Part shown: positions 3,878 to 51,553 of the stretch, piece after piece
How the letters are laid out: every line of letters starts with the position of its first letter
How positions within the stretch are numbered: the first letter of the stretch is position 1
Assembly (NCBI GenBank): GCA_963850695.1
Contig: CAWKMJ010000001.1
Span: 931,578-995,577 of the forward strand
Reading direction: 5' to 3'
DNA: 64,000 nucleotides
From: an uncultured Actinomycetes bacterium
GTDB taxonomy: Bacteria; Actinomycetota; Coriobacteriia; Anaerosomatales; CAWKMJ01
Position numbers and translations under genes: made by a program
The notes under the pieces: model-generated
The model's database searches: none
What the model was told of the DNA's origin: nothing
What the model saw: the letters and a program-made list of their open reading frames with translations, nothing else

Positions 3878-6706
3878 CTAGTACTGCAGTCGAATGACCG
3901 CGCCCGGCGTGTTCACGAGGACACTTGGGAACGTGGTCGAGTCCTGGTCGTAGAAGCCCGCACCCGGATCCCAGTACTGGTAGTACACATAGACCCAGTA
4001 CGGCGTGGCGGAGACGGGAAGCACGATGTCATCCACGCCGTCCCACGGGCCCGCGCGGTATCCCGTCGAAACGATCGGGCCGGAGGGCCCGCCGGCTCTG
4101 ATCGTCCAATCGGCCCACTCGCCAGCGCCTGGGGCATGGGCCGGATTCACGTCGGCGTCCCACCACACGAGGCGTAGCGTTGCCGGTGCCCACGATGGTG
4201 AAGTTCACGGTGTTGGTCGCCTCGACGTTGCCCGCAGTAGTCCTCAGACCAGAACCTGAGGGTGTGCGGCTGGGGGCTGGAGCCCACTCGCGGAACGTGG
4301 ACCGAGGTCCCCGTCTGTATGGGACCGCTGTCGACCTGGTAGTAGGTGGCCATGACGCCCGGACGAGCCGTTGTCGGTAGCCGTCAGGGTGATGTTGGCG
4401 TTGCCTGTGTAGGTTGCCTGCGCGTTCGAGGTCGTCACCGGAGGCGTAGTGTCTGCAGTGACGGTGAAGTTCGCAGTCTTGTGCGGCGATCTCCTCGTTG
4501 CCCGCCTGATCCACCGACCAGAACTCGAGCGTGTGGGCACCAGGCGCGGACACGATCGGCGCGCGAACCCGACTGAGTTGCCCCGCCATCGACCTCGTAG
4601 AACGTCGTCCCCACACCGATGAGCCCGTTGTCTGTGATCGAGAACGTGATGTTGGCCCCGCCGACATAGGATGCCTGGGCATCCGATGTCGTGACCGGCG
4701 GTGTTGTGTCGCCTCCGCTGACCCCGGCGTGACAGTTCGCGCACGAGGATGGGCGGGACCTCCCAGCTCGGAGACGCGTGGCACTCGGTGCACTCGACTC
4801 GTCGACCTGAGGCGATAGTGCGCTGTCCCTGAGTCCGCGTGATACGTGGTGTGGCACCCGCCCTGCTGACAGCCCCCCGACCAGGCTCCGAGCGTGTCGA
4901 ACGGAGACGGATGGCATGTGGACATTGGTTCCCGTGGATGGGGCCGAGCTCGGTGCCGTGGCACTGGCTGCAGGCGACGTAGACCTCGCCGTCGCCGATC
5001 ATGGCGCTGTCGTGCTGGCCTGCGGCATAGATCAGCACCCAGCCGCTGCCCGGTGCGGCGGTGTGCTCTGCCGCCTCATAGCCGTGTGCCACGAGCTTGT
5101 CCGGGTGGCAGGTCCCGCAGTCGTTGGTCAGCGGCGTGACGCCATGACACGAATCGCAACCGGCGGGAGCGGCTGCGTGAATCGCCGCAGCATCTCCGCC
5201 GGGATGACAGTCGGTGCAAGCGGCGTAGGCCGCAGGGATGTCGTGTCCGTCTCCGCCGGTCGCGCCCTCATGGTATGTCTCCTGGACCCAGTGGCAGCGC
5301 TGACACACAGCGTCGAGATTGTCCGGACCTACCGTGACGGTCTCGTCGATCACTGTCGGATTGAGTCCTGCCACGTCGACCGAGTAGCTGCCGAGCATCT
5401 TGTAGCCATCGGCCTCCCCCGAGTGCGGGAAGTCAGAGTCGACGTATTCGACTGCGCCGGAATCAAACCTGTTCACGGCGTAGTTGCCGGTGCCGTAGTG
5501 ACACTGCGAGCACGCATCGCCTGAGGCCACCGGCGGAAGGTCTGCTCGATGACAGCTATAGCATTGCCCGGGCCCGCTGAAGGCCCCGACGTAGGGAGCA
5601 GGATGAGTCCTCTCGGTATGTGCCTTGAAGCCGAGTTCGACGTCTGCGAGCTCGTAGGAGCCACCGATGTTGAGATTGTGGCAGTCCGCGCACCAGACGG
5701 AGAGAGCTGCGGTGTTGACGGCGTTGGCGTCACGGTCGGAGCCGGACTCGTCCCCGGCAACGGGGCCGATCTGCTGCGCCACCCAGGCGGGAGCCGCGTA
5801 CTCGGAGCCGAAGTCATCGGTCACCGTGAACTCGGCAGAGACGTTGTCGCTGTAGGTCGCACCAGCGGTGAGCGTGGTCTCGGGCGACCTTCACGACCTG
5901 GCCGGGATCGTAGTTGCCGTAGGTGTTGGCCGACCCGGTCGTCGTGCCGGACGGGAAGAGCTTGAGGAGCTTGTAGCCGCTGCTTCGGGTCGCGCTCGTT
6001 CGGTCCGTACCCACATCGATCTCGTAGGGACGCCAGACCTGGGCCGTGGCGTTGTGGGTCTGGTGGCAGTTCATGCAACGCAGGGCCAGCGGGCCCGACC
6101 TTGCTGTAGCCCGAGCGACCTGTACCCCAATCGCCGTGGCCATGATGGCGCGTGAAGCGGTACATCGACGCCTTGGTGGCGTCGTACGCACGAACCTGGA
6201 TGTCTTCAGAGATCGGGTTCATCGGCCGCATCGACGGAGTCAGCGTGACGGCCTCGGTCCACTGGCTGACCGAGGAGTCAGGGATGGCCGTGCTGGCGCC
6301 GATCGTGTGCCCGTTCTCGGTGTACTTGCCGTAGTCATAGACGACCCGCGAGCTGTGAGCCGAACCGCCGATGTGGCAGTAGTCGCATGCGTCGTCCTGG
6401 GAATCAGCGCGAAGCAGGTAGTAGGCGCCTTCGGCGCGGTGCACGGCGTGGCAGACCTTGCACTTGTTGGTCGTCGTGTCATACCCACCGTGCGGATTGT
6501 CATAGTCGCCGACGAACTCGGTGTCTGTCGAACGCTGCGTAGCCACCTTCATACTTGGCGGAGACGTCCTGGAGATCCTGGTACGAGAATGCGGATGCTC
6601 CGTCGGGAGCGATGACCGAGGGCGGTGCGGCGGCTGCGGCCGCCGGAGCAACGAGGCCGAGACACAGTGCGAGAAGGAAGACATACCGTATAGCGTTCTT
6701 CCGCAC
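3878..6706 (-). pseudogene. multihaem c-type cytochrome, paralog A (at least 13 CXXCH + CQQGGCH), with 2 Ig-like modules and a C-terminal beta-rich domain; many frame breaks
   Basis: GTG at 6706 follows GGAGGTGA. Signal peptide RKNAIRYVFLLALCLGLVAPAAAAAA. Fragments joined: 6500..6757, 5821..6684, 5814..6191, 4244..5824, 4435..4917, 4029..4964, 4147..4353, 3878..4168. Haem motifs: CKVCH CDYCH CMNCH CADCH CYSCH CSQCH CQRCH CTDCH CDSCH CGTCH CSQCH CTECH CANCH, plus one at a frameshift junction (..QC..TCH). Two TTPPVTTS(D/N)AQA..HTL(E/R)FWS.D.(A)GN.E modules. Confidence 0.8.
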
Positions 6707-6750
6707 CGCGTTCACCTCCTGGCATCCACGCCCTATCCCCTGATGCCAGC

Positions 6751-6940: not shown

Positions 6941-9271
6941 ATGCAACTAGGAGCACTGGTGTCAAAGGGGTCAGTCAAGCTCGCAACAGTCATCGTGCTG
7001 GCAATGTGTTCGCTCCCCATGGTCGCGGACATCGCCGCGGCCTACCCCGACGAACTCCCCGACTACACCGGAGATCTCCCGCGCACGCAGTGCGTCGACT
7101 GCCACAGCGCATCAGGGCCAGACATCCTGAACCCCGGATCGGATCCTGTGCTTCTCGCTGCGGTTCGCAAGGGTCCTCATGGCGGCTACACGACCGGCAC
7201 GAGCAAGTGCCAGACGTGTCATGAGCTGCACGACGCACCGGTCGACGGTCTCAAGCTGCTTCCCGGCGAGACCATCAAGGACACCTGCGAGTCGTGTCAT
7301 GACGGGACCGGCGGCACAGCCGTGTACGGAGTCATCGAGGCGAGAACGGGCCAGGCGCCCGCCTCGGCACACCGAATCGAAGTGACGAGCACGATTCCCG
7401 GCGGTGATGCGGGAGGCGGCTCTCTGACCGGCTCCTTCATGGGCCCGGATGGGACGCTCACGTGCAGCGACTGTCACTCACCCCATGATTCCGATACCGT
7501 GCAGCCGTTCACCGGTGATCGCCTGAGGTCCACGGTCGCAAGTGACCCTGCGTACGAGACCAAGACCAACCGGCTGCTCAGGCAGGCCCCCTCCGGATCG
7601 GCGACCGAAACGGCGGTCTACGGAGCCGGCTGGTGTGCCACATGTCACACGGGACGGGCGAGCCAACATGCCACCGACTCGGGTGCCATGCAGGATCACC
7701 CGGTCATGCAGGACGACCACTACACCTACGACGAGCTGCCCGTGGTGACGGGGGTGGCGTCGACCGACACGACGATCGGGGCTCTGGGCCAGAGCAACCG
7801 AGGCTACGTGATGCCCGACGATCCAGGCGGCGCACCTCTAGAGAAGAGCGCGCTTCAGGAGGGATACGCTCCCCTGTGTCAGCAGTGTCACGAGGACGCC
7901 CGCAACGTCGGGCCTTCGGTCCGCGAGACCAATCCGGTCCTCGTGAACGCCTCGCAGGAGTTCCTCGTGACTCAACCGGACGGGGCGAGCGCCACCGACA
8001 ACCCGCGCTTCCAGGTCTTCCCGCACGAGAGCGACGCCGAGAGCTTCCTCGTGCGCCGCCCAGCCCGTCCACCGATCCCTACATCCTATGTCTGGGATGC
8101 CACTCGCTTATGCATGACGCGACGCCGGGAAGCGACTGGGTGACCATCTTCGCTCCTGGCCAGCATGATTCCGCTCTTCCGGGTTGGCCCAACGCCCCCT
8201 ACCAGGTGTATGCGGACTGCACGATATGCCACACCACGAAGACTCACCGACGCACATGGGGACCAGTGCGAGACCTGCCATCCCGCCCCCTACGACACGC
8301 TCGGAACGTGGACCGGAACGTGCCAAGAGGGAGGTTGCCACGCGACCATCCATGCTGGCTCCCCCGACGCACACGATCCCTGGTCAGCGTCGAGTGGGGG
8401 CGGCTGCGGGACCTGCCACGGACCTCCCGCGTTCTCGGTGACAGACGACAGGTGTGACAACTGCCACTCGGTGTTCAACCCGAGCGATGCCACCCCACCC
8501 GTCACCACATCCGATGCTCAAGCGAGCTACGTGGGCGCTGCCGGCATCGAGTTCACCATCACCGAGGGTGGCAAGGTGGGCATCGGCACCACGTTCTCCA
8601 AAGTCGATGGCGGACCGGTCGTCGTGGGAAGCAGCATCGTGGTCAGCACTCCCGGAACGCACACGCTCGAGTTCTGGTCGATCGATCAGGCTGGCAACGT
8701 CGAGACGCCGGCGAACACTGCGACCTTCACGATCAGTGCGGACACCACGCCGCCGGTGACGACATCGAACGCCGTGTCCACCTACTACTACTATCCCGCC
8801 CAGATCACGTTCTCTGCGACTGACGCAAGCTCGCTGGGAGTGAAGGCGACGTACTACTCGCTCGACGGCGGTGCGACACAGACAGGGACACGCCTCACGG
8901 TCCCCGCCGTCTCCGGCGTCGTGACGCACACCGTCGAGTTCTGGTCCGAGGACTGGTCGGGCAACGTCGAGGCGACCAAGACCGCGAACTTCACCGTGAT
9001 CGGAGGGACCGGGACGGTGCGATTCAACTCCGGCCCGCTCGGAGCGGGCGACTGGGTGGACTGGCTGGTGTGGAGAGGGCCTCGCGACGCGACGCCCGAC
9101 TACGTCGTGTCTCAGGTAGGTCCCTACAACGGCTACGATGACCTGGCTCTCCCCGTGAGTGCGACGCAGTACTACATCGTCGTCTCCTGGGGAACGCCGT
9201 CCGAGCCCTACGATGAATCTGTCATCGGCTACATCACGATAGACAGCCCTGACGACTTCTTCAGCTTCTAG
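6941..9271 (+). pseudogene. multihaem c-type cytochrome, paralog B (11 CXXCH + CQEGGCH), with 2 Ig-like modules and a C-terminal beta-rich domain; two frame breaks
   Basis: ATG at 6941. Signal peptide KGSVKLATVIVLAMCSLPMVADIAAA. Fragments 6842..8143, 7633..8457 and 8165..9271, with shifts near 8055 and 8240. Haem motifs: CVDCH CQTCH CESCH CSDCH CATCH CQQCH CLGCH CTICH CETCH CGTCH CDNCH. The N-terminus (GPHGGYTTGTSKCQTCHELH) parallels paralog A (NPHGGYDTTTNKCKVCHAVH). Confidence 0.85.
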
Positions 9272-9848: not shown

Positions 9849-11347
9849 CGCTTGATCAGCCTCCTCGGGTCAAGAGCGAGGAGGATCTGGGCGAACAGGA
9901 CCATGACGGCGATGAACTCCAGTCTGCCCGCCCACATCTGGAACATGTAGACGAACTTGAGACCGACAGGCATCGAGGCAGAGGTCACACCGATCGAGAG
10001 TCCTGAGTTGGCGGTCGCTGAGACCGACTCGAACGCGGCCTGCGCAACGCCGTATCCATACGCTGCTCCAGCGACGCCGCCTACGAGGTATGTCGCGAGG
10101 TAGAGAAGGAAGATCGTCGTGACCGCACTGACCATTCCAGGCGTCAGGGTACGCTCACCGAGGTGCTGGTAGCGCACCATGACGACCGCACTCCTCGGCG
10201 AGAGCGACTGCTTGAGGCTGAGCAGCACGGACTTCCCAAGGATGCCTGCGCGCAGGGCTTTGATGCCGCCACCTGTCGAGGACATGGAGCCGCCTATTCC
10301 CATGGCCATGATGATGGCGAGCAGTCCGATACCCCCGAAGTCGTTGAGGAACTGACTCGGGTATATCGTCTGGTGACCAGCGCTCTGCCCGGCTATCACC
10401 TGGAAGACGCCTTTGCGGAAGACGCCGACGGCACCTCCGGACCACTCGGCATAGGTCATCCCCACCGCGACCAGCAAGATCATGAGGGTGGACACGAACG
10501 CCAGGACCCTGAGCTCCATGTTGCGGAAGAGCTCTCGCCGATCACCTCGCCAGACCATGGCGTGCAGGCCGAAGTTGATCGACCCGGCCATCATCAGGAC
10601 GAGGGCTGAGATCTCCATCATGTAGTTGTGGTAGTACATCAGGTTCATCCGCTGGGGCGCGAAGCCACCGGTGTCAAACGCCGCCACAGATATCCAGAAG
10701 GAGTGCAGAAGACCACGATCGAAGGGCATGCCGAGATAGAGCAGGATCGCGAACATGGCGAGCGTCCCGGTGATCACGTAGGCCCCCGTGACGGTCCAGA
10801 TGAAGCGGGCGGTGTGGATCACGTTGGGAAGGATGCGCTCGTCTCGGCCCTCGGCCATGTAGAGAGAGAAGGCGCCGGCCCTGAGCCCGACCGTCAGCGA
10901 TATGGCGGTCACGACGATACCTTGGCCGCCAAGGAACTGTGTGAGATGGCGCCACATGTTGTGGCTGAGCGCCAGGTGGTCCAAGTCAGCGACGACGGTG
11001 AGTCCCGAGACCGTGAATCCGCTGATAGCGTCGAACGCTGCGTCCAGGTAGGTGGGATAGTTGCCCGAGAGGGCGAGCGGCACGGCTGCTATGGCTGCCG
11101 CGGCCACCCAGCCAAACGCCGTGATCGAGAGCGCATGCATGTAGCCCACGCGCGCGCCCTTGGTCTGTGCGCTGACCATGAGCATCCCCACGGTGAACGC
11201 GACGCCCATCCCTGCAACGTAGTCGAGGGCCGCACTCCACTCACTGAAGACGAGTGCGGTGGCCAGCGGGACGAGCATGGTGATGCCGAGACCGACCACG
11301 AGCATGCCGGAGTAGTGGAGCACCACCCGGAAGTCCTGGAGACGCAT
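9845..11347 (-). CDS. trkH: TrkH/KtrB-family potassium uptake protein
   Basis: Start chosen at MRLQDFRVVLHY (ATG at 11347) within ORF 9845..11413. Polytopic protein with repeated pore-loop glycine signatures (FLGGQGIV, DTGGFA, STGGGIK, TANSGLS). Confidence 0.85.
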   Translation of the reverse strand: MRLQDFRVVLHYSGMLVVGLGITMLVPLATALVFSEWSAALDYVAGMGVAFTVGMLMVSAQTKGARVGYMHALSITAFGWVAAAAIAAVPLALSGNYPTYLDAAFDAISGFTVSGLTVVADLDHLALSHNMWRHLTQFLGGQGIVVTAISLTVGLRAGAFSLYMAEGRDERILPNVIHTARFIWTVTGAYVITGTLAMFAILLYLGMPFDRGLLHSFWISVAAFDTGGFAPQRMNLMYYHNYMMEISALVLMMAGSINFGLHAMVWRGDRRELFRNMELRVLAFVSTLMILLVAVGMTYAEWSGGAVGVFRKGVFQVIAGQSAGHQTIYPSQFLNDFGGIGLLAIIMAMGIGGSMSSTGGGIKALRAGILGKSVLLSLKQSLSPRSAVVMVRYQHLGERTLTPGMVSAVTTIFLLYLATYLVGGVAGAAYGYGVAQAAFESVSATANSGLSIGVTSASMPVGLKFVYMFQMWAGRLEFIAVMVLFAQILLALDPRRLIKR

Positions 11348-11635
11348 GCGGACCCACACGCTGCGCAGCCCCCTACAGAACCCACATGAGCACGAGGGCC
11401 AGGAGCCAGACAAGCAGGAGGAAGGCTCCGAAAGTGGCGAGCTCAGCCAGCAGACCGCTGAACCAGTGCTGGGAGGGGCTTGTGAACCAGTGTGTCTTCA
11501 AGCCAGCCTGTTCCGTCCGGGGGAAGGGCGGTTCGCACCGACAGCATACAGCAGAGCGGTGGGGTCAGGCACAGGCACGTGTCGCACAGAGCGAATCCCT
11601 GATCAGGACCGGATCTCGTCGACATCGCCGAACAT

Positions 11636-12541
11636 CTACCCCGGGGCGTTCAGCTCCTGGTTGAGCTCGTTCACGGCCTGCTCGAGGTCCTCGGCCGTCC
11701 GCATCGTGGTGGCGGTCGGAGTGCTCGTCGTGACGAAGTGCTGCGCGTAGGGGAAGCATGCCGCCTCGAACGGCCTCGGGTCGAGCATGTCGCCCCCGAA
11801 GGTGTTGGTGCACAGCGAGATGCCGTCGAGCGGAAGCTTGAGCGCTCGGGCCATCTCTCCCGGATCGAACACCAGACTGAAGGGCTTGGTGCACTGCTGC
11901 AGCTCACCGCCGTAGTCGACCGAGAGGTTGCCCTCCACCCACAAGCGCTGATCGAGATCGGCAAGCACGCCATCCTTGAGGTCGGCCACGAGCGCGATGC
12001 TGTTGTCAGACTTCTCACTCGCGACGTCGACGATGACCTCGCCTCGGTACGACGTCGTGACGACCGAATGCGCGGTACTCGGCCCGCTGAACCCTCGACT
12101 GGGGTCGTAGCTGTTCGTGTTGCTCTCGTACTCCTCGATGATCCAGGACAGAAGCCCCGTCTCGCAGTTCTCGGCAACCAGATAGAACTCCACACGGTTG
12201 CCCCAGAACACGTTGGTGTGGACGTTGAACGCGCCGAGGATCGCGCAGGGGCGCCCGGGCGTATCGCCGAACATGGCCGAGGGAAGCAGGCTGTAGCCGG
12301 GTGGCAGCAGCTTCTCGGCCGCCTCCGTATCGACGATCTCGAAGGAGAGGAAGACGCTGTAGGGCTCGACGACGAAGCTCATGTACGGGTTGTACTTGGC
12401 CCCCGTGTCGACGATGTAGCGCTGGAGTCCGAGCGGCAGTTTGCGCAGCGTCTCGGTGCGCTTGACCATAGATGCAACCTGAGCCGGCACGACCATCTTC
12501 TCGGTGGTCCTGATGTAGCGCCTGAGGTCCTCAGTCTTCAC
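11636..12541 (-). CDS. hypothetical protein (tentatively acetoacetate-decarboxylase/DUF2071-like fold)
   Basis: 301 aa, intact, cytoplasmic-looking. Only weak pattern similarity (..LLPPGYSLLP..VEFYLVAE..). Function not supported. Confidence 0.5.
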   Translation of the reverse strand: MKTEDLRRYIRTTEKMVVPAQVASMVKRTETLRKLPLGLQRYIVDTGAKYNPYMSFVVEPYSVFLSFEIVDTEAAEKLLPPGYSLLPSAMFGDTPGRPCAILGAFNVHTNVFWGNRVEFYLVAENCETGLLSWIIEEYESNTNSYDPSRGFSGPSTAHSVVTTSYRGEVIVDVASEKSDNSIALVADLKDGVLADLDQRLWVEGNLSVDYGGELQQCTKPFSLVFDPGEMARALKLPLDGISLCTNTFGGDMLDPRPFEAACFPYAQHFVTTSTPTATTMRTAEDLEQAVNELNQELNAPG

Positions 12542-12775
12542 GTCTACTCCTCGCGGTGTGCCTTCTCTGGCAGGATCCGATCATGCGACCCCGACAGCAT
12601 AGAGCAGGAGACCCCGGCGTTCCTGCAGAGGCCCCGAGAGTTGCTGGTGTGCGCTGTCGGAAGGTCTTGCGGTTCTCGCGAGCTGAGCGCTCACCCCGTG
12701 GCTGGCAGCTGAGTCACTGTCAGACCAGCCTCCGGGAACTCCCTCTGCAACCCTGACTGCGTAGGCCGTTCGCCT

Positions 12776-13312
12776 TCAGCCCTTCGGTGAAAGACGATAC
12801 CGCAACTCCACGATTCCGTCGGACCACGTTCTTGCAGACGTCGGTCGAAGCTTGGTTGTACTGTGCGGCGTCACCCAGAGCGGGATGCCATCCCCCAGCA
12901 GAATCGGCTGTATCGCAATCAGATACTCATCAACCAACCCCGCATCCGACAGAGAGGTTGCGAGTTGCCCGCCGCCGAAGAGCCAGATGGTGCCACCATC
13001 CTCGCGCTTCAATCGCTCGACGAAGGTCTCGGCTCGCTCGTCTACGAACGCAACGCCGGACATCGGGTCGAGGTCGTTGCCTGAAGTGAACACATAGACG
13101 CTCTTCCCCTCGAAGACATCGACTCCGCCGTCAAGAGCAAGGGACATCTCATACGTACCACGACCCATGATCAGAGTGTCGATCGTGTCCATCAGTTCGA
13201 GATAGTCGGAAGGGACCTCTTCCGAGGGTGGCAGCAGCCAATCGACACCCCCGCTCCGATCTGCGATGAACCCGTCGAGCGAGGTCGTGAGACAGAGCAA
13301 GACATCGCGCAT
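12776..13312 (-). CDS. dihydrofolate-reductase-family protein (RibD C-terminal domain type)
   Basis: 178 aa. Motifs LTTSLDGFIADRSGGVDWL...LIMGRGTYE...IWLFGGGQLATSL...DEYLIAIQPILLGDGIPLW are typical of this family. Confidence 0.8.
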   Translation of the reverse strand: MRDVLLCLTTSLDGFIADRSGGVDWLLPPSEEVPSDYLELMDTIDTLIMGRGTYEMSLALDGGVDVFEGKSVYVFTSGNDLDPMSGVAFVDERAETFVERLKREDGGTIWLFGGGQLATSLSDAGLVDEYLIAIQPILLGDGIPLWVTPHSTTKLRPTSARTWSDGIVELRYRLSPKG

Positions 13313-13370
13313 GGTCTCTCCTTCTGCGACGACAGTTCAGTCTACTGTGTTCCCAAAGCGGACCGAAAGC

Positions 13371-13995
13371 TCAGGGCCTAGGGCGCGAGGCTGAGCAGCT
13401 GCCACGTAAGAGTGCGCTCATCGCGATCGCATAGGCAACGAGTGCGTAGTACCAGTTGCCGCCGAACTTCGGCGTTCGGATCGGCGCCACGTTCAGCGCG
13501 GCGAGAACCATCATCAGCCCGAACAGCACGATCAGGAACACCGAGGAATCAAGCACGGGCTGGAATGCGAAGAACGCAACCAGAATGATCACGTTGTTGT
13601 CGAGCGCCAAACCCCGGTATGTCGAGCCATCCACCATGCCGATCGTGTTGAAGTAGGCAAGCCGAATGACCGCTGCCGCGAGGACGACGAACCCACCGAG
13701 CACGAATCCAGGTCGAAAGCCCCCTACTGAGAGCAGCAACACCATCGGAGCCACGCCGAAACTGATGACGTCGATGAGCGAATCCAGCTGCGCGCCGTAC
13801 TCACTCTGCTCCTCGGTTCGTCCGCTCATCTTGCGTGCGACGCGACCATCGAGCCAGTCGAACACGACCGCCCAGATGAGTCCGATCATCGCAGCGGGAA
13901 ACACGCCGAGAATGGCGTAGTAGATGCCGAGCCATCGCCGACCCGAGTCCCACAAGGGAGATGAGGTTCGGGAGGTCTTTGGCAAACCACAGCAT
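13371..13995 (-). pseudogene. CDP-alcohol phosphatidyltransferase (PssA-like), one frame break near 13930
   Basis: ATG at 13995 (MLWFAKDLPNLISLVGLG) in the frame of ORF 13801..14073, then ORF 13371..13985. Signature DWLDGRVARKMSGRTEEQSEYGAQLDSLIDVISFGVAP matches D(x)2DG(x)2AR..G(x)3D(x)3D. Confidence 0.75.
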
Positions 13996-14027
13996 GGAGT
14001 GCGGTTCCTTATTGAGCCTGTCCGCCA

Positions 14028-15961
14028 CTACGACTCGACCGCCGCGTCTATGCGCATGTGCGAGTGCCTTCACAAGCGCGCGGTTCTCTTCGTTTCGTGC
14101 GGCAGGCGACGCGAATGTAGCGGCACGAGTCAGGCATCGTCTTGCCGCCGCAATGCTTGATGTAGATGTTGTCCTCGACGAACAGGTGGCGTTCGATGTC
14201 GGGACCCGGACGCGCTCGCATCGGGCAAGCGACAGAAGATGAAGTTCGCATCGGGTTTGTACACGGTCAGACCCGGTACGGAGTGGAGATCCTCGTAGAA
14301 CGCGTCCCTGTCAGCGCGCACGGATCGCAGCTCTCCACGAAGTCCTGTCGGTAGTCGGGGGCGAGACGAAGGAACTCCTCGGCGAACCCGTTGAGGTTCC
14401 AGATGTGCAGGCCGTCGCGGAGGTCGCGTGACGAGCTTCTCGTTGGCCGAGAGGAGATATCCGATCCTCAGGCCGCAGATCCCGTAGGCCTTGCTCATGC
14501 TCTTGAGTACCGCGAGATTGCGGTAGTCGCCGATGACGCCCTCGAGAGACTGCGCGTGGGCGGCATCTGCGAAATCGATGAAGGACTCGTCGACGATCAG
14601 GGTGCAGTCGTGCCCCTCGAGCAGTTCGAGAAGGCGCAAGAGATCGCCGTGTGGCACAAGCAGCGAGGTCGGATTGTTGGGGCTGACGATGACTGCGATA
14701 GTCGGCGCCGCTGCTGATCGCCTCGGCGGCGAAGCGGTCGACGTCGAGCTCAAAGGACGGTGCGTCGAGAGCGAACTCGATGACGCTGCCGGCGGGGCAG
14801 CGTTGGCGTACTCATTGAACGACGGCACCGGGATGATCAGTCTCGAGGCCAGAGGACCGGAGAGTATCTTGATGATCTCGGCCGCCCCGTTGCCCACTAC
14901 GAGCCTCTCTGCAGGCTGTCCGATCAGCTTCCGACCAGATCTGCGAGAACGTTCTGCGCAACCGGGTAGTTGAGCACGAGGTCATGGATTCGGTCCGTGA
15001 ACAGCCTCGAAGAGCGACTCCGGCGGGAAGTAGAGATTGTAGAGGTATGCATGGTCGACGAAGCTGTGACGCCAGTAGCCGCCGTGCTCTGACTGAAGGG
15101 CTTCGTATTCCGCGTTCCGCGTGGCGCGCATATCTTCGATAGGAATCGCCGCTCACCCGGCGACCCCTGCTGCCGCCTCGAACGCTTCACAGCTTCAGCT
15201 GCCTCCGAGTATCGAGGAAACATGATTTCGGCTGCGGCCAGATCCTCAAGCGTGTCTATCTCGTACCAGCTGTCAGCGTCGAAGAGTACGGGCTCAAGGG
15301 TGAGGGAGCCGTCGGCAACCATCTCGGCGAATACCGACTCGTAGTAGTCTCCGGTGCGTTTGGCAGCGATGTAGGTATCGAGACGGTCGGAAATCGTGCG
15401 CCAGGTGCTGCGCGAGAAGCTGTAGATGTTGACGGTCTTGTAGTGAGTCGCATCGGGGCGGCTCATCTCGCCCAGGCAGAATGCGCTCACACCATTCTCG
15501 GCGCCGAACGTGACGGTTGTCCCGTTCATCCAGGGCAGCTGACGGGAGACGGCCATCCGGTCGGGTTTGAGCATCCCCTCGAGCAGCGACCCGTCGAACA
15601 CGAGATCGCTTTCGATCAGCAGCACCGGCTCATCGATCGTCTTGCGCGCAAGCCAGAGGCTGTAGATGTTGTTGGTCGTTCGATAGCAGGAACTCGTGAC
15701 GTAGCTGATCTCGATGTTCCCCGCGCGGTCGCCCAGGTAGTCCTGGATCGACGCCGACTCATGGCCAAGCACGACCACCAGACGAGTGAAACCATTGTCG
15801 CCCAGAGTCCGCAGCAAGCGCTCGAGAATCGTGATTCCGCTCACACCGACAAGGCACTTGGCCGTATCGTCAGTGAGTGGGGCAAGCCGGCTGCCCATGC
15901 CGGCGGCAAGCAGTAGTGCTGTTGTGGGTTGGTCTTCTCGTGCGTCGGAAAGAGTACGCAT
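14028..15961 (-). pseudogene. fusion of a LicC-like nucleotidyl(cytidylyl)transferase and a class I/II PLP aminotransferase/decarboxylase (HisC/CobD-like); several frame breaks
   Basis: ATG at 15961 (MRTLSDARED..ALLLAAGMGSRLAPLT..NNIYSLW..WYEIDTLEDL) gives the NTP-transferase domain in ORF 14924..16105. The aminotransferase half comes from 14812.., 14130..14897 and 14048..14251 (VVGNGAAEIIKIL.., VSPNNPT.., LIVDESFIDF.., PLP-lysine motif LKSMSKAYGICGLRIGYLL). The 3' end is uncertain; TAG at 14028-30 in an alternate frame was chosen. Confidence 0.65.
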
Positions 15962-16430
15962 TGGCAGCTCCAGATCGTCGTGGTCGCGACCGCGACACCC
16001 CTTGGTGCAGCGGTCGAACCAGTGCACACGCAAAGGGCACCTGGCACCTTGACGATGGAAAGGCCGACGCTGCGTCGATCCATCAAGTCGAACGGTGATC
16101 CTCATCCATGTGGTACGCCTCTACCGAAGCGAGAATATGCTGGTAGATGCAGAGAGTTCGTCGAGCCACCGGAGAGGTGAGAGAGGGGCAACCAGACTCT
16201 GGTTGGAGCGCCGCTGGTGCGGCGCAGTAGGCTCTCTACTATAGGGTACGCTGGTGCCACAGGCGAATCTTTGCCCTCGCCAAGGGTCTCTCCCCAGGAG
16301 TAGACTTCGAGTCCGTCCTACGCGGGAGACAGGGGCATATGGAACTCTCGAGGGCTACAGACTACGTAGGCGATGCAGGGAATGCCGAGCCCGTTCACAC
16401 GCATCGCGGAAGCCGGTCAACTTTCGAACA

Positions 16431-16462
16431 ACAAAGGCCCCGAACCCTTAGGTTCGAGACCT
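16431..16462 (-). terminator. intrinsic terminator downstream of the CPBP gene
   Basis: On the minus strand: ggtctCGAACCtaagGGTTCGgggcc followed by TTTGTTGTT. Confidence 0.55.
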
Positions 16463-16507
16463 GTCGTGTTGGTGGGCCATAGTGGTCGTCTTTCGAACAC
16501 CTGAAGG

Positions 16508-17342
16508 TTAGACCGCTCTGTCCGCGCCCCTAGGCAGGTCGTCTGTCGAAAGCCTCGCAGGCCCCCAGTGCCACACAATGATCGCCGCGAGAGCCAGCAG
16601 GAGCCCGAAGTCCATCCAGCGCCCGAGGTCACTGACCCAGAACGGGATAGCCGCTGCGGCTGCGTTTAGTAGACGCATGGAACAGTCCGGCGACTAGAAT
16701 GCTGCCACCCGTGTTGTTGTACAGCCATGTGTAGAAGACAGATAGGACCATCGTCTGCAGGATGAACTGGTACATTGGAATTGCGGCCTGGGTCGTGCCT
16801 TCGATGTAGAAGAGCGGGAGGTGCCACAGCGCCCAAATCAAGCCGAGGGCGAGGCTTGCGCCCAACGCGGTGCCGCTCTGCTGAAGTCGGTCAAGGGCGT
16901 ATCCTCGCCAACCGTACTCTTCCGGCATTGCGTTGAGGAAGAAGATCATCAGAAACACCGGGACGATCGCGGCTGCCGACACCCCGTACTCCCAGGAGAA
17001 CGTCCCGTTGATGGTTAGGATGAATGCTGCGGTGGCAAGTCCGGTGACCGGCCCCAGCAGCAGCGCTGGGACAAGCCACTTCTTCGGGAAGTCGAGTCGC
17101 CAACCGCGCAGCCAGAGCGTCTTTGCACCGGATCTTCCCGAGCGGCGCCATGTCAGCCAGAAGGCCGCCACCGCCGGGCCGAAGGGAGCAAACATCCCAG
17201 GCAACCCGACTATCTCAGGAAGGTCCGGAAACCCGTTGTATCTCAGCACTTGTGGTGCCCACAGTAGCCAGGAGAACACGTACGTGATTCCAATGAACTG
17301 GAGTAGCTCTCGCTTCGGTTCCGATGCCACTCGATCCATCAA
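16508..17342 (-). pseudogene. CPBP-family intramembrane glutamic endopeptidase (CAAX protease/Abi); one frame break near 16665
   Basis: ORF 16629..17342 carries EEYGWRGY and ends ..FHASTK. Deleting one A of the AAA run restores FHASTNAAAAAIPFWVSDLGRWMDFGLLLALAAIIVW.. with a TAA at 16508-10. This is the clearest local example of a homopolymer indel. Confidence 0.8.
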
Positions 17343-17402
17343 TGTAGTCCTCCTGCAGCTTGAAGGCTGTCCTTCCAGCGTGGTGGCGCACGAGCTGTAC
17401 CG

Positions 17403-18279
17403 TCACGAGCGCACTGTGAGGGCAGCCAGTATCTCCTCGATATGGTTGTTGATCGTTGAGAAGTGGGCGCCGTCATCTACAACGTGCAGGGTGCTTGAAG
17501 CCAGCGTGCGTGCGAAATACTCGCCCATAGCCAAGGGCACCTGGACGTCGTAGCGCCCGTACCACAGCGCAACAGGGAAGGCGATCTCCTGCAGGGAGAA
17601 TCCCCAATCGTGCACGTAGAGCGACCATTCGTAGGCATCACCCTCAACGCCGTTCGCATGGGCCTCCTGCGCATCGCGCGCAAAGATGTCGAGTATCTCG
17701 GGGCGCTCTGTGAGAAGCTCGATATCAGGCTGGGGAAGTCGGGTGAGCATCTGGGACCGCATGCGCTCCGAGATTCGAGTAGAATCCCGCCATCTGTCCC
17801 AACAGAAATCGGTTCAGAGGTGGGACTCGAAGGGCGGACCAGTGGATGAGGCGGACTGGAGGCCACATGCCCCTCGTTGTCCCACGCGCGTCAGGAGGCG
17901 TAACGCCACTGACTACGGCTACGCCCGCCACACGTTCTGGCGCTCGATAGGCCATGGCGAGGGCGTGAGGACCGCCGCCTGACAGGCCGAAGACGCCGGC
18001 ACGGTCGACGCCGAGGGCGTCCATCAAGGCGACCACGTCATCAGACGTGGAGAGCAGCGAGCGGCGCGGATCGAAGTCGGATTGCCCGAAACCGGGGCGG
18101 TCTGGCGCGATGATCCGAATGCCGATCTCGCGCGCCGCAGTGTCGAACCACGCGGCCTCGAGGCGCGAGCCGTTTCCGCCGTGGAAGTAGACGACCGGCG
18201 ATCCCGTGGGCTCGCCGTACTCGGCCCACGAAATGCGACGGCCATCAGAGAGGCGAGTGCTTTCCGGTTGCCTCGGCAT
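17403..18279 (-). pseudogene. alpha/beta-fold hydrolase; one frame break near 17760
   Basis: ATG at 18279 (MPRQPESTRLSDGRRISWAEYG..VVYFHGGNGSRL..GVFGLSGGGPHAL) in ORF 17725..18582, continuing in ORF 17403..17762 (..DDGAHFS..). The longer ORF start would overlap tRNA-Val. Confidence 0.75.
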
Positions 18280-18476
18280 CCCGAGTGCTCCTTGTGATAT
18301 GTCCAAGAGTGGCTCTACAGTCCGCGTAGCCCTACGACCAACATACCCATGCTCACTCAGCAGCCATATGGCTTCATCACGCGGCAGCACCACTGTTGCT
18401 CCACTCGAGGGGGCAACGTCTACCCATCGGCATATGCGGAGAGGCCCCGGCATTCCTGCCGAGGCCTCGAAGTTGC

Positions 18477-18551
18477 TGGTGGGCGATACTGGATTTGAAC
18501 CAGTGACTTCTTCCTTGTAAGGGAAGCACTCTCCCGCTGAGTTAATCGCCC
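18477..18551 (-). tRNA. tRNA-Val (anticodon TAC), CCA encoded
   Basis: Hand-folded cloverleaf. Acceptor GGGCGAT/ATCGCCC, D stem ACTC/GAGT, anticodon stem CTTCC/GGAAG with loop CTTACAA, T arm ACTGG-TTCAAAT-CCAGT, then A-CCA. Confidence 0.9.
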
Positions 18552-18684
18552 GTATGGGAACAGGCATGCGCCTGAAGAGCAACTAGCCAAGCGCCCGGGC
18601 ACCGCTGAGCGGGAGGAACATGAGTCCTGCTTGGGCGAACGCCCGAGTGAGCGGCCGCGAGCACGACCATTCGAGCACGAGAAA

Positions 18685-18704
18685 GGCCGCCCAGCTGGGC
18701 GGCC
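18685..18704 (-). terminator. GC hairpin terminator after tRNA-Glu(CTC)
   Basis: GGCCGCCC-agct-GGGCGGCC is a perfect 8-bp stem. It is followed on the minus strand by TTTCT. Confidence 0.55.
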
Positions 18705-18716
18705 TCGGTGTCATGT

Positions 18717-18792
18717 TGGTGCCCCCACGGGAATTCGAATCCCGGTCTCCGCCTTGAGAGGGCGGTGTCCTTGGCCACTAGACGATGGGGGC
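18717..18792 (-). tRNA. tRNA-Glu (anticodon CTC), CCA encoded
   Basis: Acceptor GCCCCCA/TGGGGGC, GTCTAGTGGCCAAGGAC D region, anticodon stem CCGCC/GGCGG with loop CTCTCAA, T arm with TTCGAAT, then A-CCA. Confidence 0.9.
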
Positions 18793-21879: not shown

Positions 21880-22168
21880 TTCCCGCGACCGACCGCGCGG
21901 GCCGCTCGCAAGGCGAAGCGTAGTGTAGCGTGCGTCCTGGGGCAGGTCAATCGTGGCCGGAGGCGCCTGCGGATACGTCTACCTGCGGCGATGCGCCGCC
22001 ATCGGGCAGGTCTGCCGAGAGGCCGTGCAGCTGGCGCGTCAACGCATCCGATATCGCTTCTAGCTGCGATGACGCGCCGGTGCCCCAAAACGGGAATGCT
22101 AGCATTGGGTGTGAGATGCGCCCGCGCCTGGAGCGCGGGCATCGAGCCATGAGGGGGACCACGCACAG

Positions 22169-24364
22169 ATGAGTGACGCCCAGCGTCTGATCCTGGTATC
22201 CAACCGCCTGCCCGTATCCATAGATCGCAAGAAGAGCGAACTCTCGTTCAAGATGAGCATGGGCGGCGTCGCCACCGGCCTTGGCGCCTACCACGAGACG
22301 CACGAGAGTCTGTGGGTGGGCTGGGCCGACATCCCCGGCAAGGTGACCCCCGAGGTCACCGCCGAGGTGCAGACCCGCTTGCGCGAGGAGCACGGCTGCG
22401 TCCCGGTCTTCCTCACCGGAGCGGACGTGCGCGGCTTCTACTACGGCTTCTCCAACCGCACGCTCTGGCCGCTCTTCCACCACTTCACGCAGTTCACCGA
22501 GTTCGACCCGGCCACGTGGGCCTCGTACGAGGAGGTCAACCGCAAGTACTGCGACGCCGTGATGGAGGTGGCACGTCCCGGCGACATCATCTGGGTGCAG
22601 GACTACCAGCTCATGCTCCTGCCCGGGATGCTCCGCGAGAGGATGGCCGAGGCCACCATCGGCTTCTTCCTCCACATCCCCTTCCCGAGCTTCGAGATCT
22701 TCCGCATGCTGCCCTGGCGCGAGCAGCTGCTCGAAGGGCTCCTCGGCTCCGATCTCATCGGGTTCCACACCTACGACTACGTACGCTACTTCCTCGGCTC
22801 GGTCCGACGGCTGCTCGGCCTGGAGGAGCACCACGGGCGCGTCAACGTGAGCGACCGTCTCGCGCTGGCCGACGCATTCCCCATGGGCATCGACTACGAC
22901 CGCTACGCCGAGGGGGTCGCCTCGCCGACCGGCCGTCGAGGAGGCCGAGACCATCCGCGAGCGCACCGGGGACCGCAAACTCATCCTCGGCATCGACCGG
23001 CTCGACTACACCAAGGGCATCCCGGAGCGCCTGCGAGCGTTCGCCGACTTCCTCGAGCGCTACCCCGAGTGGCGCAGAGCGCGTCGTCATGATCGCCGTG
23101 GCGGTCCCCTCCCGCGAGCGAGTCAACCAGTACAGGGAGCTCAAGAGCGAGGTCGACGAGCTCGTCGGCTCGATCAACGGCAAGTACTCGACCATGGACT
23201 GGACGCCGATCCGCTACCACTACCGCGCGCTCCAGTTCGAGAAGCTCTCGGGCACGTACGCCGCCTCCGACGTCGCGCTCGTGACCCCGCTGCGCGACGG
23301 CATGAACCTGATCGCCAAGGAGTACGTCGCAGGCCGGCTCGACCAGACCGGCGTGCTCGTTCTCTCCGAGATGGCAGGCGCGGCGCGCGAACTCGGAGAG
23401 GCCGTCATGGTCAACCCGTTCGACCGCGACGCGATGGTCGAGGCGATCCGCACGGCGCTCGAGATGCCCGAAGACGAGCAGCGGGAGCGCAACGAGGCGA
23501 TGCAGCGCCGCATCAAGCGCTACACCGTGAGGCGGTGGGCCGAGGACTTCCTCCACAGTCTGGAGAGCATCAAGCTCGACGCAGATCGGCCTGGACGCCC
23601 ATGTCCTCGACGAGTGGGCGCGCGAGCGCATGATCAACGAGTACTCCGCCGCGAAGAAGCGACTTGTCATGCTCGACTACGACGGCACCCTCATGCCGCT
23701 GGCCGACAGCCCCGAGGCCGTGCGTCCCGATCCCGACCTCCTCGCCCTCCTCGATCGCCTCGCCGAGGACGACCGCAACGAGGTCGTGGTCATATCGGGG
23801 CGCGAGCGAGCCACGATCGACTCCTGGCTGGGACACCTCCCGATCGATCTTGTAGCCGAGCACGGCGTGTGGCTCAAGGAGAACCGCGGCGAGTGGATAA
23901 CCTTCGAGCCGATGAGCGCCGAGTGGAAGACGCGCGTGCGCCCGGTGCTCGAGGTGTTCGTCGACCGCACGCCCGGGACGTTCATCGAGGAGAAGGAGTT
24001 CTCGCTCGTCTGGCACTACGCAAAGGTCCATCCTGACCTGGCCGCGACGCGCGTCGATGAACTCAAGCAGGAGCTGATCGCCGTCGTGGGCGACCTTGGC
24101 CTCGGCATCATGGAGGGCAACAAGACGGTCGAGGTGAAGAGCGCGGGCGTGAACAAGGGGCTCGCGGCACACCGCTGGATGGCGCGCGAGGAGCCAGCGT
24201 TCGTGTTCTTCGCTGGCGACGACCGCACGGACGAGGACGTGTTCGAGGCCGCGCCGGACGGGGCGTGGACCGTCAAGGTCGGCCGAGGCAGGACGATCGC
24301 GAGCCACTCGGTCCGCTCGGTGTACGATGTCCGGGACCTGCTCGAAGAGATGCTGGAGGCATAG
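22169..24364 (+). pseudogene. otsAB: bifunctional trehalose-6-phosphate synthase / trehalose-phosphatase (OtsA-OtsB fusion); about 4 frame breaks
   Basis: GT20 motifs LILVSNRLPV, FYYGFSNRTLWPLFH, IWVQDYQLMLLP, IGFFLHIPFPS, FHTYDY (ORF 22169..23092). The middle and C-terminal part of GT20 lies in ORF 22312..24036 ([27 protein letters not shown]..). The HAD phosphatase is ORF 23630..24364 (LVMLDYDGTL..GDDRTDEDVF). No plausible stop separates the two halves once frames are corrected. Confidence 0.8.
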
Positions 24365-30434: not shown

Positions 30435-31487
30435 AGGTCACGACCCCCGTCCCTTGCTCGATCTCGCCGATCTCGTAGACGGTCTCGCCCGCAGCGCGCA
30501 GGGTGGCCGCCGCATGAGGAGCATCTGATGCCGAGAGGACGAGCGCGAAACCGACACCCATGTTGAAGGTCTTGAGCATCTCGTCAGCGTCGAGCGAGGC
30601 AGCATCGGCGAGCGCGCCGAAGATGGCCGGCTCCCGCCACGAAGCGGGATAGCACGCGCGCATCGCAGTCATCGGGCAGCACGCGGTCGAGGTTCTCGGT
30701 GATGCCGCCGCCCGTGATGTGGGCCATCGCCTTGGGACGGTGCTCGGTCTGGAGCAGCGCCTGGACCGCCCTCACGTAGATGCGCGTGGGCTCGAGGAGA
30801 GCATCGGCGAGCGTGGCGCCGCCGAGATCCACCCGGGCAAGCGCGAGCTCGTCCTCGTGACCCTCGACGAGCACGCGGCGAACGAGCGAGTAGCCGTTGG
30901 AGTGGATGCCTGAGGAGGCAAGGCCCAAGACGACATCGCCCGGGGACACCGTGGAGCCGTCGATGATCCTCGGCTTGTCGACCACGCCGACGCAGAAGCC
31001 GGAGAGGTCGTAGTCATCATCGGGCATGACGCCGGGATGCTCGGCCATCTCGCCGCCGATCAGCGAGCAGCCGGCCTGCGTGCAGCCCTCGGCGATGCCG
31101 GAGACGATGCTTGCGACCTTCTCGGAATCGAGCTTGCCGATGGCGATGTAGTCGAGGAAGAACAGCGGCTCGGCGCCGGTGACGAGGATGTCGTTGGCGC
31201 ACATGGCCACCAGATCGATGCCCGACGGTGTCGTGTCGGTCGAGGAGCTGGGCGAGCTTGAGCTTGGTGCCCACGCCATCGGTTCCGCTCACCAGGATCG
31301 GCTCGGCCATCTCCTTGAACGCCGCTGCCGAGAAGAGTCCGCCGAAGCCACCGATGTCGCCGATGACCTCGGGGCGATAGGTCGACTGGACCTTGGCACG
31401 GATGGCATCGACGGCACGCGCGCCCTCCGACGTGTCCACGCCGGCGTCGGAGTAGGTGGTGGGTCGATCGTTGTTCTCGTCAGTCAT
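30427..31487 (-). pseudogene. purM: phosphoribosylformylglycinamidine cyclo-ligase (AIR synthetase); two frame breaks
   Basis: [30 protein letters not shown] (31017..31487), ..[48 protein letters not shown] (30584..31279), ..FNMGVGFALV.. (30427..30672). Confidence 0.9.
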
Positions 31488-31508
31488 GGCGCCCCCTCGC
31501 CCCTGATT

Positions 31509-42283: not shown

Positions 42284-42377
42284 CTCCTCGGGGTCACCTG
42301 ACAGCTGTCACCATTGTAGCGGCATAGGGTGCCATCCCGCCGTGCTGGCCCGGCATCGAGCTCCGTGACAGCGGCCC

Positions 42378-46517: not shown

Positions 46518-46566
46518 GCGCAAGCCTCCGTGTCGATCTCCCGTTGCTGTCCCGCTCTGACTCGCG

Positions 46567-50655: not shown

Positions 50656-51553
50656 TCAGTCGCCTTCCGGTTGGAACGTGCGTCCCGTGATCGTCTCGTA
50701 GGCCTCGATGTAGCGCTTGCTGGTGCCTTCGATGACGTCGGCGGGCAGCTCGGGCGGCGGCGGGTGTCTTGTCCCAACCGCTGCTCGCTGAGCCAGTCGC
50801 GCACGTACTGCTTGTCGAAGCTGGGCTGCCCGCGTCCGGGCTCGTACTCGTCCATGGGCCAGAACCGGCTCGAGTCCGGCGTGAGGACCTCGTCGATGAG
50901 CGTGACCTGGCCGTCGACGACGCCGAACTCGAACTTGGTGTCCGCGATGATGATGCCGCGTGCTGGCGGCATGCTCGCGCGCCTGCGAGTACAGCGCGAT
51001 CGAGGCGTTCCTGAGCGCCTCGGCAGATGTCTCGCCGATGATGTCGACCATCTGCTCGAAGCTGATGTTCTCGTCGTGATCGCCGATCTCGGCCTTGGTC
51101 GAGGGCGTGAAGATCGGCTCCTCGAGCTTGGCTGATTCGAGCAGGCCGTCGGGAAGCTCGATGCCGCAGATGGTGCCATCGGCCTGGTACTCCTTCCAGC
51201 CCGAACCGGCGACGTAGCCCCGCACGATGCACTCGACCGGGAAGACCTCGGCCTTCTTGACGATCATCGAGCGTCCGCGCAGGTAGTCCGCGTGCGGCGC
51301 GAACTCCTCGGGCAGTGTCGCGACGTCGCTCGAGATGAAGTGGTTGGGCACGACATCGCCGAGCAGATCGAACCAGAACAGCGAGAGCTTGGTGAGCACC
51401 TCGCCCTTGTACGGGAATCGGCTGGTCAAGCACTACGTCGAAGGCGCTGATGCGATCCGATGCGACGAGAAGCAGCCTGTCTCCGAGGTCGTAGATGTCG
51501 CGCACTTTGCCCTGGGTATCCGGGCTCAGGCCCTGCGGCTCGACCACGGGCAT
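50656..51553 (-). pseudogene. purC: phosphoribosylaminoimidazole-succinocarboxamide synthase; about 4 frame breaks
   Basis: ATG at 51553 ([39 protein letters not shown]), then YKGEVLT..ECIVRGY.. (50656..51429), then [34 protein letters not shown] (50229..51179). Confidence 0.9.

Follow-up and report, generated by a model that had tools for sequence, protein, structure and literature searches.

What is made by three neighbouring genes on the minus strand of a 64,000-nucleotide stretch of DNA from an uncultured Actinomycetes bacterium of the Coriobacteriia (contig CAWKMJ010000001.1, positions 931,578 to 995,577; the whole stretch is referred to as the window), and do they serve one pathway? The genes, called here ntp, plp and pss-like and together the trio, would specify a nucleotidyltransferase, a pyridoxal phosphate (PLP)-dependent enzyme and a cytidine diphosphate (CDP)-alcohol phosphotransferase. 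Judged from sequence, the best explanation of the trio is a three-gene operon that makes and delivers an activated amino-alcohol head group. Its features, after correction of frameshifts, are the following.

15961..15153, minus strand: ntp, predicted LicC-like cytidine triphosphate (CTP):phospho-amino-alcohol cytidylyltransferase, 268 amino acids (aa) once the indel at 15196-15197 is corrected, ending ...AAAGVAG-TGA
15153..15156, minus strand: GTGA, in which the TGA stop of ntp overlaps the GTG start of plp, the same junction as in the relatives L001 (1682-1685) and L002 (10001-10004)
15156..14028, minus strand: plp, CobD-like PLP-dependent enzyme, putative O-phospho-L-serine/threonine decarboxylase, 374 aa, GTG start
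13996..14027, minus strand: 32-nt spacer from the plp stop (TAG) to the pss-like ATG, from the alignment to L001/L002 and the corrected open reading frames (ORFs)
13995..13378, minus strand: pss-like, 205 aa, a small CDP-alcohol phosphotransferase with six helices, PssA type
15962..16462, minus strand: upstream non-coding stretch, covered by a consensus scan and Rfam

An earlier note on this DNA had reconstructed a single gene of about 640 codons that fused the first two domains and was followed 33 nt later by a PssA-like gene. In L001 and L002, the closest intact relatives, ntp (268 aa) and plp (374 aa) lie in different frames and overlap by GTGA, followed by a CDP-alcohol phosphotransferase of 205-216 aa, and the ntp/plp junction of the window, GGGTGAGC, is identical to theirs. 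As read from the corrected frames, the trio is thus three genes in the genome of the window, with the cytidylyltransferase and the PLP enzyme unfused, and the GTGA overlap indicates translational coupling of two separate genes. The spacer, put at 33 nt earlier, measures 32 nt. Of the earlier bounds of the region, 15961 is the true start of ntp and 13371 is the stop of a frameshifted ORF, the corrected stop lying at 13378. The motifs on which the fusion had been built (LLAAGMGSRL, NNIYSLW, YEIDT and SMSKAYGICGLRIGY) are all found on the minus strand, spread over three frames between 13.3 and 16.1 kb with no single frame holding them all, and in the raw uncorrected sequence the ntp and plp frames stay unjoined. 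The three domains themselves are real, with Pfam matches to NTP_transferase/NTP_transf_3, Aminotran_1_2 and CDP-OH_P_transf on the minus-strand pieces.

The trio shares 83-90% amino acid identity with L001/L002: ntp is 87-90% identical to their 268-aa genes and plp is 86-89% identical to their PLP genes (P0019 is the L001 product). The best database match of plp, P0013, is 88% identical, and the nearest intact homologues of pss-like are 95% identical and, where named, come from Coriobacteriia metagenome-assembled genomes (MAGs). When a stitched translation was searched against a protein collection, fusions of ~625-645 aa were at most 74% identical, and stand-alone PLP proteins of 373-375 aa at most 88%. 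A three-way DNA alignment with both intact relatives placed 13 indel events (14 nt) in the 2.6 kb of the trio of the window.

Insertions in the trio of the window: 15197-15196, 15150, 15006, 14698, 14428, 14204, 14091, 14053 and 13931
Deletions in the trio of the window: after 14929, 14792, 14325 and 13411

With the 13 indels removed, three ORFs with no internal stop and with lengths as in the relatives were obtained. The ratio of nonsynonymous to synonymous substitution rates (dN/dS) between the corrected trio and L001/L002 was 0.07-0.12, compared with 0.07-0.11 between L001 and L002, and the corrected trio is under purifying selection. A terminator-like hairpin (16462-16435) ends the gene preceding the trio, which is therefore probably its own transcription unit. 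The consensus scan detected no sigma-70-like promoter upstream of the trio (15962..16462), and Rfam at the gathering threshold, applied to the window, L001-L003 and L012, gave no riboswitch, the matches in the window being tRNAs only.

For the first gene product, the likeness is to enzymes that activate phospho-amino-alcohols with CTP. Ntp matches PF00483 (E 9e-10) and PF12804 (E 9e-8) and contains the nucleotide-binding loop LLLAAGMGSRL (LxxAGxGxRL). Its best match in the PDB, extending along the entire protein, is LicC (1JYK, E 7e-13, residues 14-245), in which IYEID and NNFYSLYL align with WYEID and NNIYSLWL of ntp; a C-terminal acidic metal motif is present, and the IPCT structures 2XME/4MND are matched weakly. 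In the LicC route of Streptococcus pneumoniae, a LicC-type enzyme activates the phospho-amino-alcohol with CTP, and a CDP-alcohol phosphotransferase or LicD passes it on. The trio differs from that route in having no kinase, the phospho-amino-alcohol apparently arising de novo via a PLP decarboxylase, in its PssA-like transferase, and in the residue expected to contact the amine. We take the CDP-choline route of Treponema denticola (LicCA-Cpt) to be another counterpart of the trio. The amine-contact residue of ntp is the Glu of LLIESDL, which falls at the position of Glu104 in Tde-PntC; this residue contacts the primary amine of 2-aminoethylphosphonate (AEP), and its LicC equivalent is Asp (PMC6697681). 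The analogy drawn earlier with the T. denticola fusion Tde1415 (PntC-AEPT, 6PD1) holds for the NTP domain (E 4e-9, the match being limited to residues 13-137 in P0009 numbering) and for the general idea that a small primary amine comes from a PLP enzyme adjoining, or fused to, the cytidylyltransferase that activates it. It fails for the PLP domain, which in Tde1415 belongs to the class V transaminases and has a phosphonate substrate, whereas here it is of class I/II, CobD-like and encoded by a separate gene, with no Ppm motif in the window.

For the second gene product, decarboxylation is suggested. Plp belongs to PF00155 (class I/II), and its best NCBIfam match is the CobD profile TIGR01140 at 167.1 bits, 41 bits above the hisC profile TIGR01141 (125.7 bits, below the hisC cutoff of 276.55). 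In the PDB it matches 6OUX (E 1.5e-33), which bears the name 'threonine phosphate decarboxylase-like enzyme' and which we take to be the serine phosphate (Ser-P) decarboxylase SMUL_1544, and CobD itself (1LC5, E 6e-24). The Schiff-base lysine lies in SMSKAYG, aligned to SLSKDFG and SLTKFYA, and an HGG motif is present near the N terminus. Because TIGR01140, 6OUX and 1LC5 score best, plp is more likely a decarboxylase than an aminotransferase. Two members of the same PLP family give precedents: Cj1436 converts serine phosphate to ethanolamine phosphate (PMC12409886), and SMUL_1544 has been proposed to be a phosphoserine decarboxylase (PMC4585668). Although CobD, SMUL_1544 and Cj1436 provide the top profile and structure matches, plp differs from CobD in a shorter N-terminal segment and a score under the profile cutoff, and from the group as a whole in lacking a cobamide or capsule context and in its coupling with both a cytidylyltransferase and a transferase of the membrane.

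The third gene product is PssA-like with features of its own. Pss-like belongs to PF01066, and its motif, DWLDGRVARx12GAQLDSLID, occurs once in the window. It scores below both PssA cutoffs of NCBIfam (75.4 versus 107 for TIGR00473 and 89.3 versus 240 for NF038087), and its sequence matches in the PDB are 7POW/7B1K (E ~1e-11), the phosphatidylserine synthase of Methanocaldococcus jannaschii (MjPSS). An AlphaFold 2 model (predicted local distance difference test score, pLDDT, 88; predicted template modelling score, pTM, 0.86) gave MjPSS 7B1K as the best Foldseek match (template modelling score, TM, 0.72, E 7e-7); no likeness to EPT, CPT or CEPT1 was found, with a TM of 0.42 and an E of 3.2 to CEPT1 (8GYW) and no NCBIfam match. 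Pss-like shares with MjPSS its size, six-helix fold and catalytic motif, and the clade around it (75 members) keeps Asp62, Ser63, Asp66 and Phe105, with which MjPSS binds its acceptor serine, as well as Arg101, with Ala59, named as part of the Ser1 site, as the majority residue. It departs from MjPSS, beyond the scores under the PssA cutoffs, in a four-residue insertion in the catalytic loop (consensus KGRT; SGRT in the copy of the window) and in having RLxYFN (RLAYFN in the window) instead of RLARF, with Tyr in the place of Arg104 of MjPSS. A donor other than that of MjPSS is suggested because the pss-like gene is linked to the gene of a predicted CDP-amino-alcohol-forming enzyme. Such an arrangement resembles IPCT/DIPPS and the proposed inositol-lipid cluster of Bacteroides vulgatus/Prevotella, in which the CDP-alcohol serves as donor for a CDP-alcohol phosphotransferase that lies beside a cytidylyltransferase or forms a fusion with it, but the head group here would be an amino alcohol from a decarboxylase rather than inositol phosphate, the transferase is of the PssA branch, and the structural similarity to DIPPS itself is remote (E 0.055). 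A Kennedy-like precedent of the 'NTP transferase + CDP-alcohol transferase' kind exists in bacteria (PMC9246714 and its reference 34).

That the three chemistries belong together, as the earlier note had proposed, is borne out across many phyla. We scanned one genome per species with an alignment of fusions as the query and found a relative in 446 genomes; the best 80 of these, together with L001 and L002, make up the 82 loci on which our counts are based. In 75 of the 82, the NTP/PLP genes are followed immediately by a PssA-like gene of the same orientation. True NTP-PLP fusions number 18 (~625-680 aa in the more distant relatives, among them P0001, P0002 and P0009) and occur in Dehalococcoidia, Thermotogae, Bipolaricaulota, Acidimicrobiia, Nitrospirales and one Coriobacteriia MAG, with separate genes in 62 loci; the ORFs of the module often overlap or almost abut. 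The earlier note had held that separate genes with unrelated neighbours in related genomes would speak against it; the genes are indeed separate here, but their neighbours are related, and fusions exist in other lineages. Since the NTP and PLP domains are fused in 18 loci and otherwise adjacent, they would act in consecutive steps. Carriers include Actinomycetota, Desulfobulbales, Bacteroidota, Kiritimatiellota, Chloroflexota, Thermotogae and others, as well as one Methanococcoides MAG, and among cultured strains Pontiella sulfatireligans F21 and species of Carboxylicivirga, Saccharicrinis and Flavivirga.

The seven loci that lack a called PssA-like gene (L013, L017, L033, L035, L041, L051 and L063) bear on the direction of transfer. 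In L017 and L035 the gene is present as a fragment at a contig end. In L013, L033 and L041 a divergent CDP-alcohol phosphotransferase stands instead, joined in L013 and L033 by a LicD-family gene (in L041 a small ORF occupies that position) and in L013 and L041 by a histidine-phosphatase-family gene. L063 has a LicD-family membrane protein, and L071 has an extra LicD gene in addition to its PssA-like gene. LicD enzymes transfer phospho-alcohols from CDP-alcohol donors only. Because a LicD-family transferase or a different CDP-alcohol phosphotransferase replaces the PssA-like gene, or joins it, in some loci, we consider it probable that the donor is a CDP-activated amino alcohol produced by the NTP/PLP pair; for the transfer 'to (or from)' a CDP-activated lipid left open by the earlier note, this points to a CDP-amino-alcohol donor. 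L051, from a Deltaproteobacteria MAG, has neither a CDP-alcohol phosphotransferase nor a LicD-family gene; a class III aminotransferase follows plp and is itself followed by a 2-hydroxyacid-dehydrogenase-like ORF (10006-11361), and this locus may represent a variant pathway.

Other genes recur beside the module, each with generic family matches only and no named family. An S-adenosylmethionine-dependent methyltransferase of ~282 aa with a hydrophobic C terminus, often convergent, adjoins it in 13 loci of diverse phyla (L007, L011, L026, L042, L049, L062, L064, L065, L073, L074, L077, L080 and L081). It may N-methylate the amine head group, and its presence fits such a head group. Nine loci have an ATP-grasp-like ligase after the trio in the same orientation, at a distance of ~0.6 to 1.3 kb from plp (L010, L015, L018, L027, L031, L047, L060, L061 and L069), and a calcineurin-like metallophosphoesterase likewise follows the trio in 11 Desulfobulbales loci (L009, L010, L019, L020, L024, L025, L028-L031 and L070). 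These two recall Campylobacter jejuni, with its Ser-P decarboxylase Cj1436, ATP-grasp enzyme Cj1438C (amidation with ethanolamine phosphate) and phosphatase Cj1435. Among the recurrent or conserved neighbours in the 82 loci there was no cob/cbi gene, no psd-like gene and no PduX-like threonine kinase.

Taken together, these observations lead us to propose the following order of events. In the first step, the CobD-like enzyme would decarboxylate a phospho-amino acid, most economically O-phospho-L-serine, to phosphoethanolamine; threonine phosphate, giving aminopropanol phosphate, would be the alternative, and we favour phosphoserine because it is a central metabolite and because no kinase is conserved in the operon. 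In the second, the LicC-like enzyme would, by analogy with its family, use CTP to form CDP-ethanolamine. In the third, the PssA-type enzyme would transfer the phospho-amino-alcohol from CDP to an acceptor hydroxyl with release of cytidine monophosphate. As acceptor we would tentatively put a diacyl- or alkyl-glycerol first, which would give a phosphatidylethanolamine (PE)-type lipid by a bacterial, Kennedy-like route that starts from phosphoserine. The substrates, the acceptor and the order of the first two steps are proposals, with the acceptor as the weak point, and we put the probability of the full model, lipid acceptor included, at roughly 40%. The core of the earlier proposal, an amine-bearing phospho-alcohol activated with CTP, is still the best reading.

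Several points weigh against the full model. First, many carriers (Bacteroidota and Desulfobulbales) would be expected to make PE already by PssA/Psd, so that a second route would be redundant there. Second, the transferase is PssA-like in sequence and fold, unlike EPT/CPT, and its NCBIfam relatives all use a CDP-diacylglycerol (or CDP-archaeol) donor. Third, the retained serine pocket would fit a serine-like acceptor as well as diacylglycerol or better, and an ordinary phosphatidylserine synthase too. Finally, plp falls below the CobD equivalog cutoff (167.1 versus 290.55 bits).

The third point leads to a different product. Were the PssA-like enzyme to keep L-serine, or a small alcohol, as its acceptor with CDP-ethanolamine as the donor, the result would be a soluble phosphodiester, for example serine-phosphoethanolamine, serving as a solute or a precursor. 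We regard this as unlikely, and its most specific form, in which the serine pocket is kept, the donor is swapped and CDP-ethanolamine and L-serine yield serine-phosphoethanolamine, as more doubtful still. It would explain why the Ser1 pocket is kept while Arg104 becomes Tyr and the KGRT-consensus insertion remodels the donor loop, it is consistent with the strong genetic coupling to the predicted CDP-amino-alcohol-forming enzyme, and the ATP-grasp and phosphoesterase genes downstream suggest further small-molecule processing. An analogue exists in the membrane-bound DIPP synthase, which makes di-myo-inositol phosphate. Many carriers come from marine or saline sediments, as might suit a solute, but the closest relatives of the window are MAGs from peat or soil; in the searchable literature serine-phosphoethanolamine is known only from animals, and a lipid substrate would suit a hydrophobic enzyme of six helices just as well. 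To our knowledge, no gene has been assigned to serine-phosphoethanolamine synthase (EC 2.7.8.4). If true, this route would add a new class of phosphodiester solute or precursor in bacteria and some archaea, and would provide a sequence for an orphan activity.

The PssA-like protein could also be what its likeness says, an ordinary phosphatidylserine (or related) synthase acting on CDP-diacylglycerol, with the NTP/PLP pair feeding CDP-ethanolamine to unlinked transferases, for instance those that decorate glycans. In that case the genes would lie together because envelope head-group metabolism is co-regulated, rather than because they form one pathway. Sequence, motif, fold and serine pocket all agree with this view, and LicD genes accompany the module in some loci. 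However, the protein scores under both PssA cutoffs and carries the clade's own signature (the KGRT-consensus insertion and RLxYFN), a psd-like gene is not recurrent beside the module, and without a shared pathway it is hard to see why the genes should lie so close together in 75 of the 82 loci across phyla. We therefore give this explanation a low probability.

An equally low probability attaches to a head group other than ethanolamine, in which decarboxylation of threonine phosphate would lead to CDP-aminopropanol, or a Cj1437-like transamination of dihydroxyacetone phosphate to serinol phosphate, and the product would be an unusual aminophospholipid. The PLP family includes both the CobD threonine phosphate decarboxylases and a serinol-phosphate-forming transaminase, and sequence does not fix the substrate. 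The lack of a PduX-like threonine kinase among the conserved neighbours speaks against the aminopropanol branch; the lead of the CobD profile over hisC, and 6OUX as the closest solved structure (presumably SMUL_1544), also count against a head group other than ethanolamine.

A phosphonate head group, among the substrates that the earlier note had entertained, appears unlikely, and a full counterpart of Tde1415, in which the pair would make and activate AEP for a phosphonolipid, is very improbable: the NTP domain is PntC/LicC-like and shares the Glu104 equivalent, but the PLP domain, of class I/II and CobD-like, differs from the class V AEP transaminase, and the Ppm motif EDKxxxxxNS has zero matches in the 64-kb window, in line with the earlier statement that it holds no pepM, and in all 82 loci with their 8-10 kb flanks.

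There remains the question of whether the breaks in the trio belong to the organism or to the assembly, because 13 frame-breaking indels in 2.6 kb could also describe decaying pseudogenes. A Viterbi analysis of codon usage over the whole window revealed same-strand frame switches within many genes; it recovered one of the 13 events within the lower-G+C operon and worked in the rest of the window, whereas a frame plot of G+C at third codon positions was too noisy for locating frameshifts. When stitched, purM (three frames; 409 bits versus a cutoff of 236), purL (five frames; 798 versus 648) and otsA (three frames; 684 versus 634) each gave a single full-length NCBIfam match. The genes split over two to five frames are listed below.

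22149-24358, plus strand: otsA/otsB
30455-31493, minus strand: purM
46258-48704, minus strand: purL
50779-51417, minus strand: purC
53904-55254, minus strand: histidine kinase

Because essential genes, which cannot all be pseudogenes together, carry similar breaks, the frameshifts of the window are, on the evidence of these reading frames, assembly errors, and the assembly is indel-rich throughout. Decay is further rejected because the corrected trio is free of stops, with a dN/dS of about 0.1. That the trio is a functionless set of decaying pseudogenes, or the remnant of a cobamide-linker (CobD) pathway as its top profile match might suggest, is thus extremely unlikely, the latter also because no cobalamin gene or riboswitch lies near the trio in the window or its relatives. 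A 194-aa protein of a public collection, P0135, is the exact product of a truncated, frameshifted ORF of the window, and public gene calls of this type are truncated because the assembly is indel-rich; this is the practical lesson for the window. Frame switches also interrupt a large, secreted-looking protein at 40324-42295 (minus strand), which has many tandem repeats of ~45 aa ('VSVASDGSQANG...DTNGxxDIFVRDR').

Recoding at the domain junction was considered as well. All 60 split loci within L003-L082 have their NTP and PLP ORFs in one frame, separated by a number of nucleotides divisible by 3, and the stops between them are a mixture of TAA, TAG and TGA, with consecutive stops in some loci. 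The out-of-frame arrangement of L001/L002 is missing from the best 80 loci despite their higher identity, and the same-frame pattern most likely reflects a ranking bias, with tblastn running through in-frame stops; programmed read-through was rejected. In L003, a palsa Actinomycetota MAG, pyrrolysine insertion sequence (PYLIS) elements of mttB and mtbB lie just upstream of the module (4576-4675 and 6163-6262), and a single in-frame TAG in the NTP-PLP linker (8754-8765) aligns with a Leu of the fused P0009; in a pyrrolysine-decoding host this TAG could be read through to give a fusion.

Two further observations concern the surroundings. The G+C content of the operon and its neighbourhood (12500-18500 of the window) is 0.61, against 0.66 in the flanks, and is likewise 3-5 points lower in L012 (8001-10576) and L003 (7959-10534); the neighbourhood of the trio differs between the window, L001 and L002, and tRNA genes lie close to it in the window (18477-18792) and in L012 (7660-7733). 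These features may point to lateral mobility of the trio. Elsewhere in the window, ORFs rich in CxxCH haem-binding motifs (4935-6721, minus strand, and 8165-9271, plus strand) suggest multihaem c-type cytochromes, which would be unusual for a Coriobacteriia-like actinobacterium.

A full-text literature search returned no paper on the module, in which a putative de novo phospho-amino-acid decarboxylase is linked to, or fused with, a LicC-like enzyme and served by its own transferase of the PssA branch. What appears to be new is the combination, the parts coming from well-known superfamilies and CDP-alcohol pathways being known, and the module is widespread and apparently unstudied in bacteria. 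If the proposed pathway is true, many bacteria, including sediment Desulfobulbales, marine Bacteroidota, Chloroflexota, Thermotogae and Coriobacteriia-like Actinomycetota, would obtain CDP-ethanolamine from phosphoserine without free ethanolamine or phosphatidylserine decarboxylase, by a route that parallels the Kennedy pathway of eukaryotes but is assembled from other parts. Annotations of 'phosphatidylserine synthase' and 'histidinol-phosphate aminotransferase' would then have to be reread in thousands of genomes. Because the module is present in cultured strains, the pathway question is directly testable. Overall, the trio would be a candidate source of aminophospholipids or phosphodiester solutes in uncultured anaerobes.

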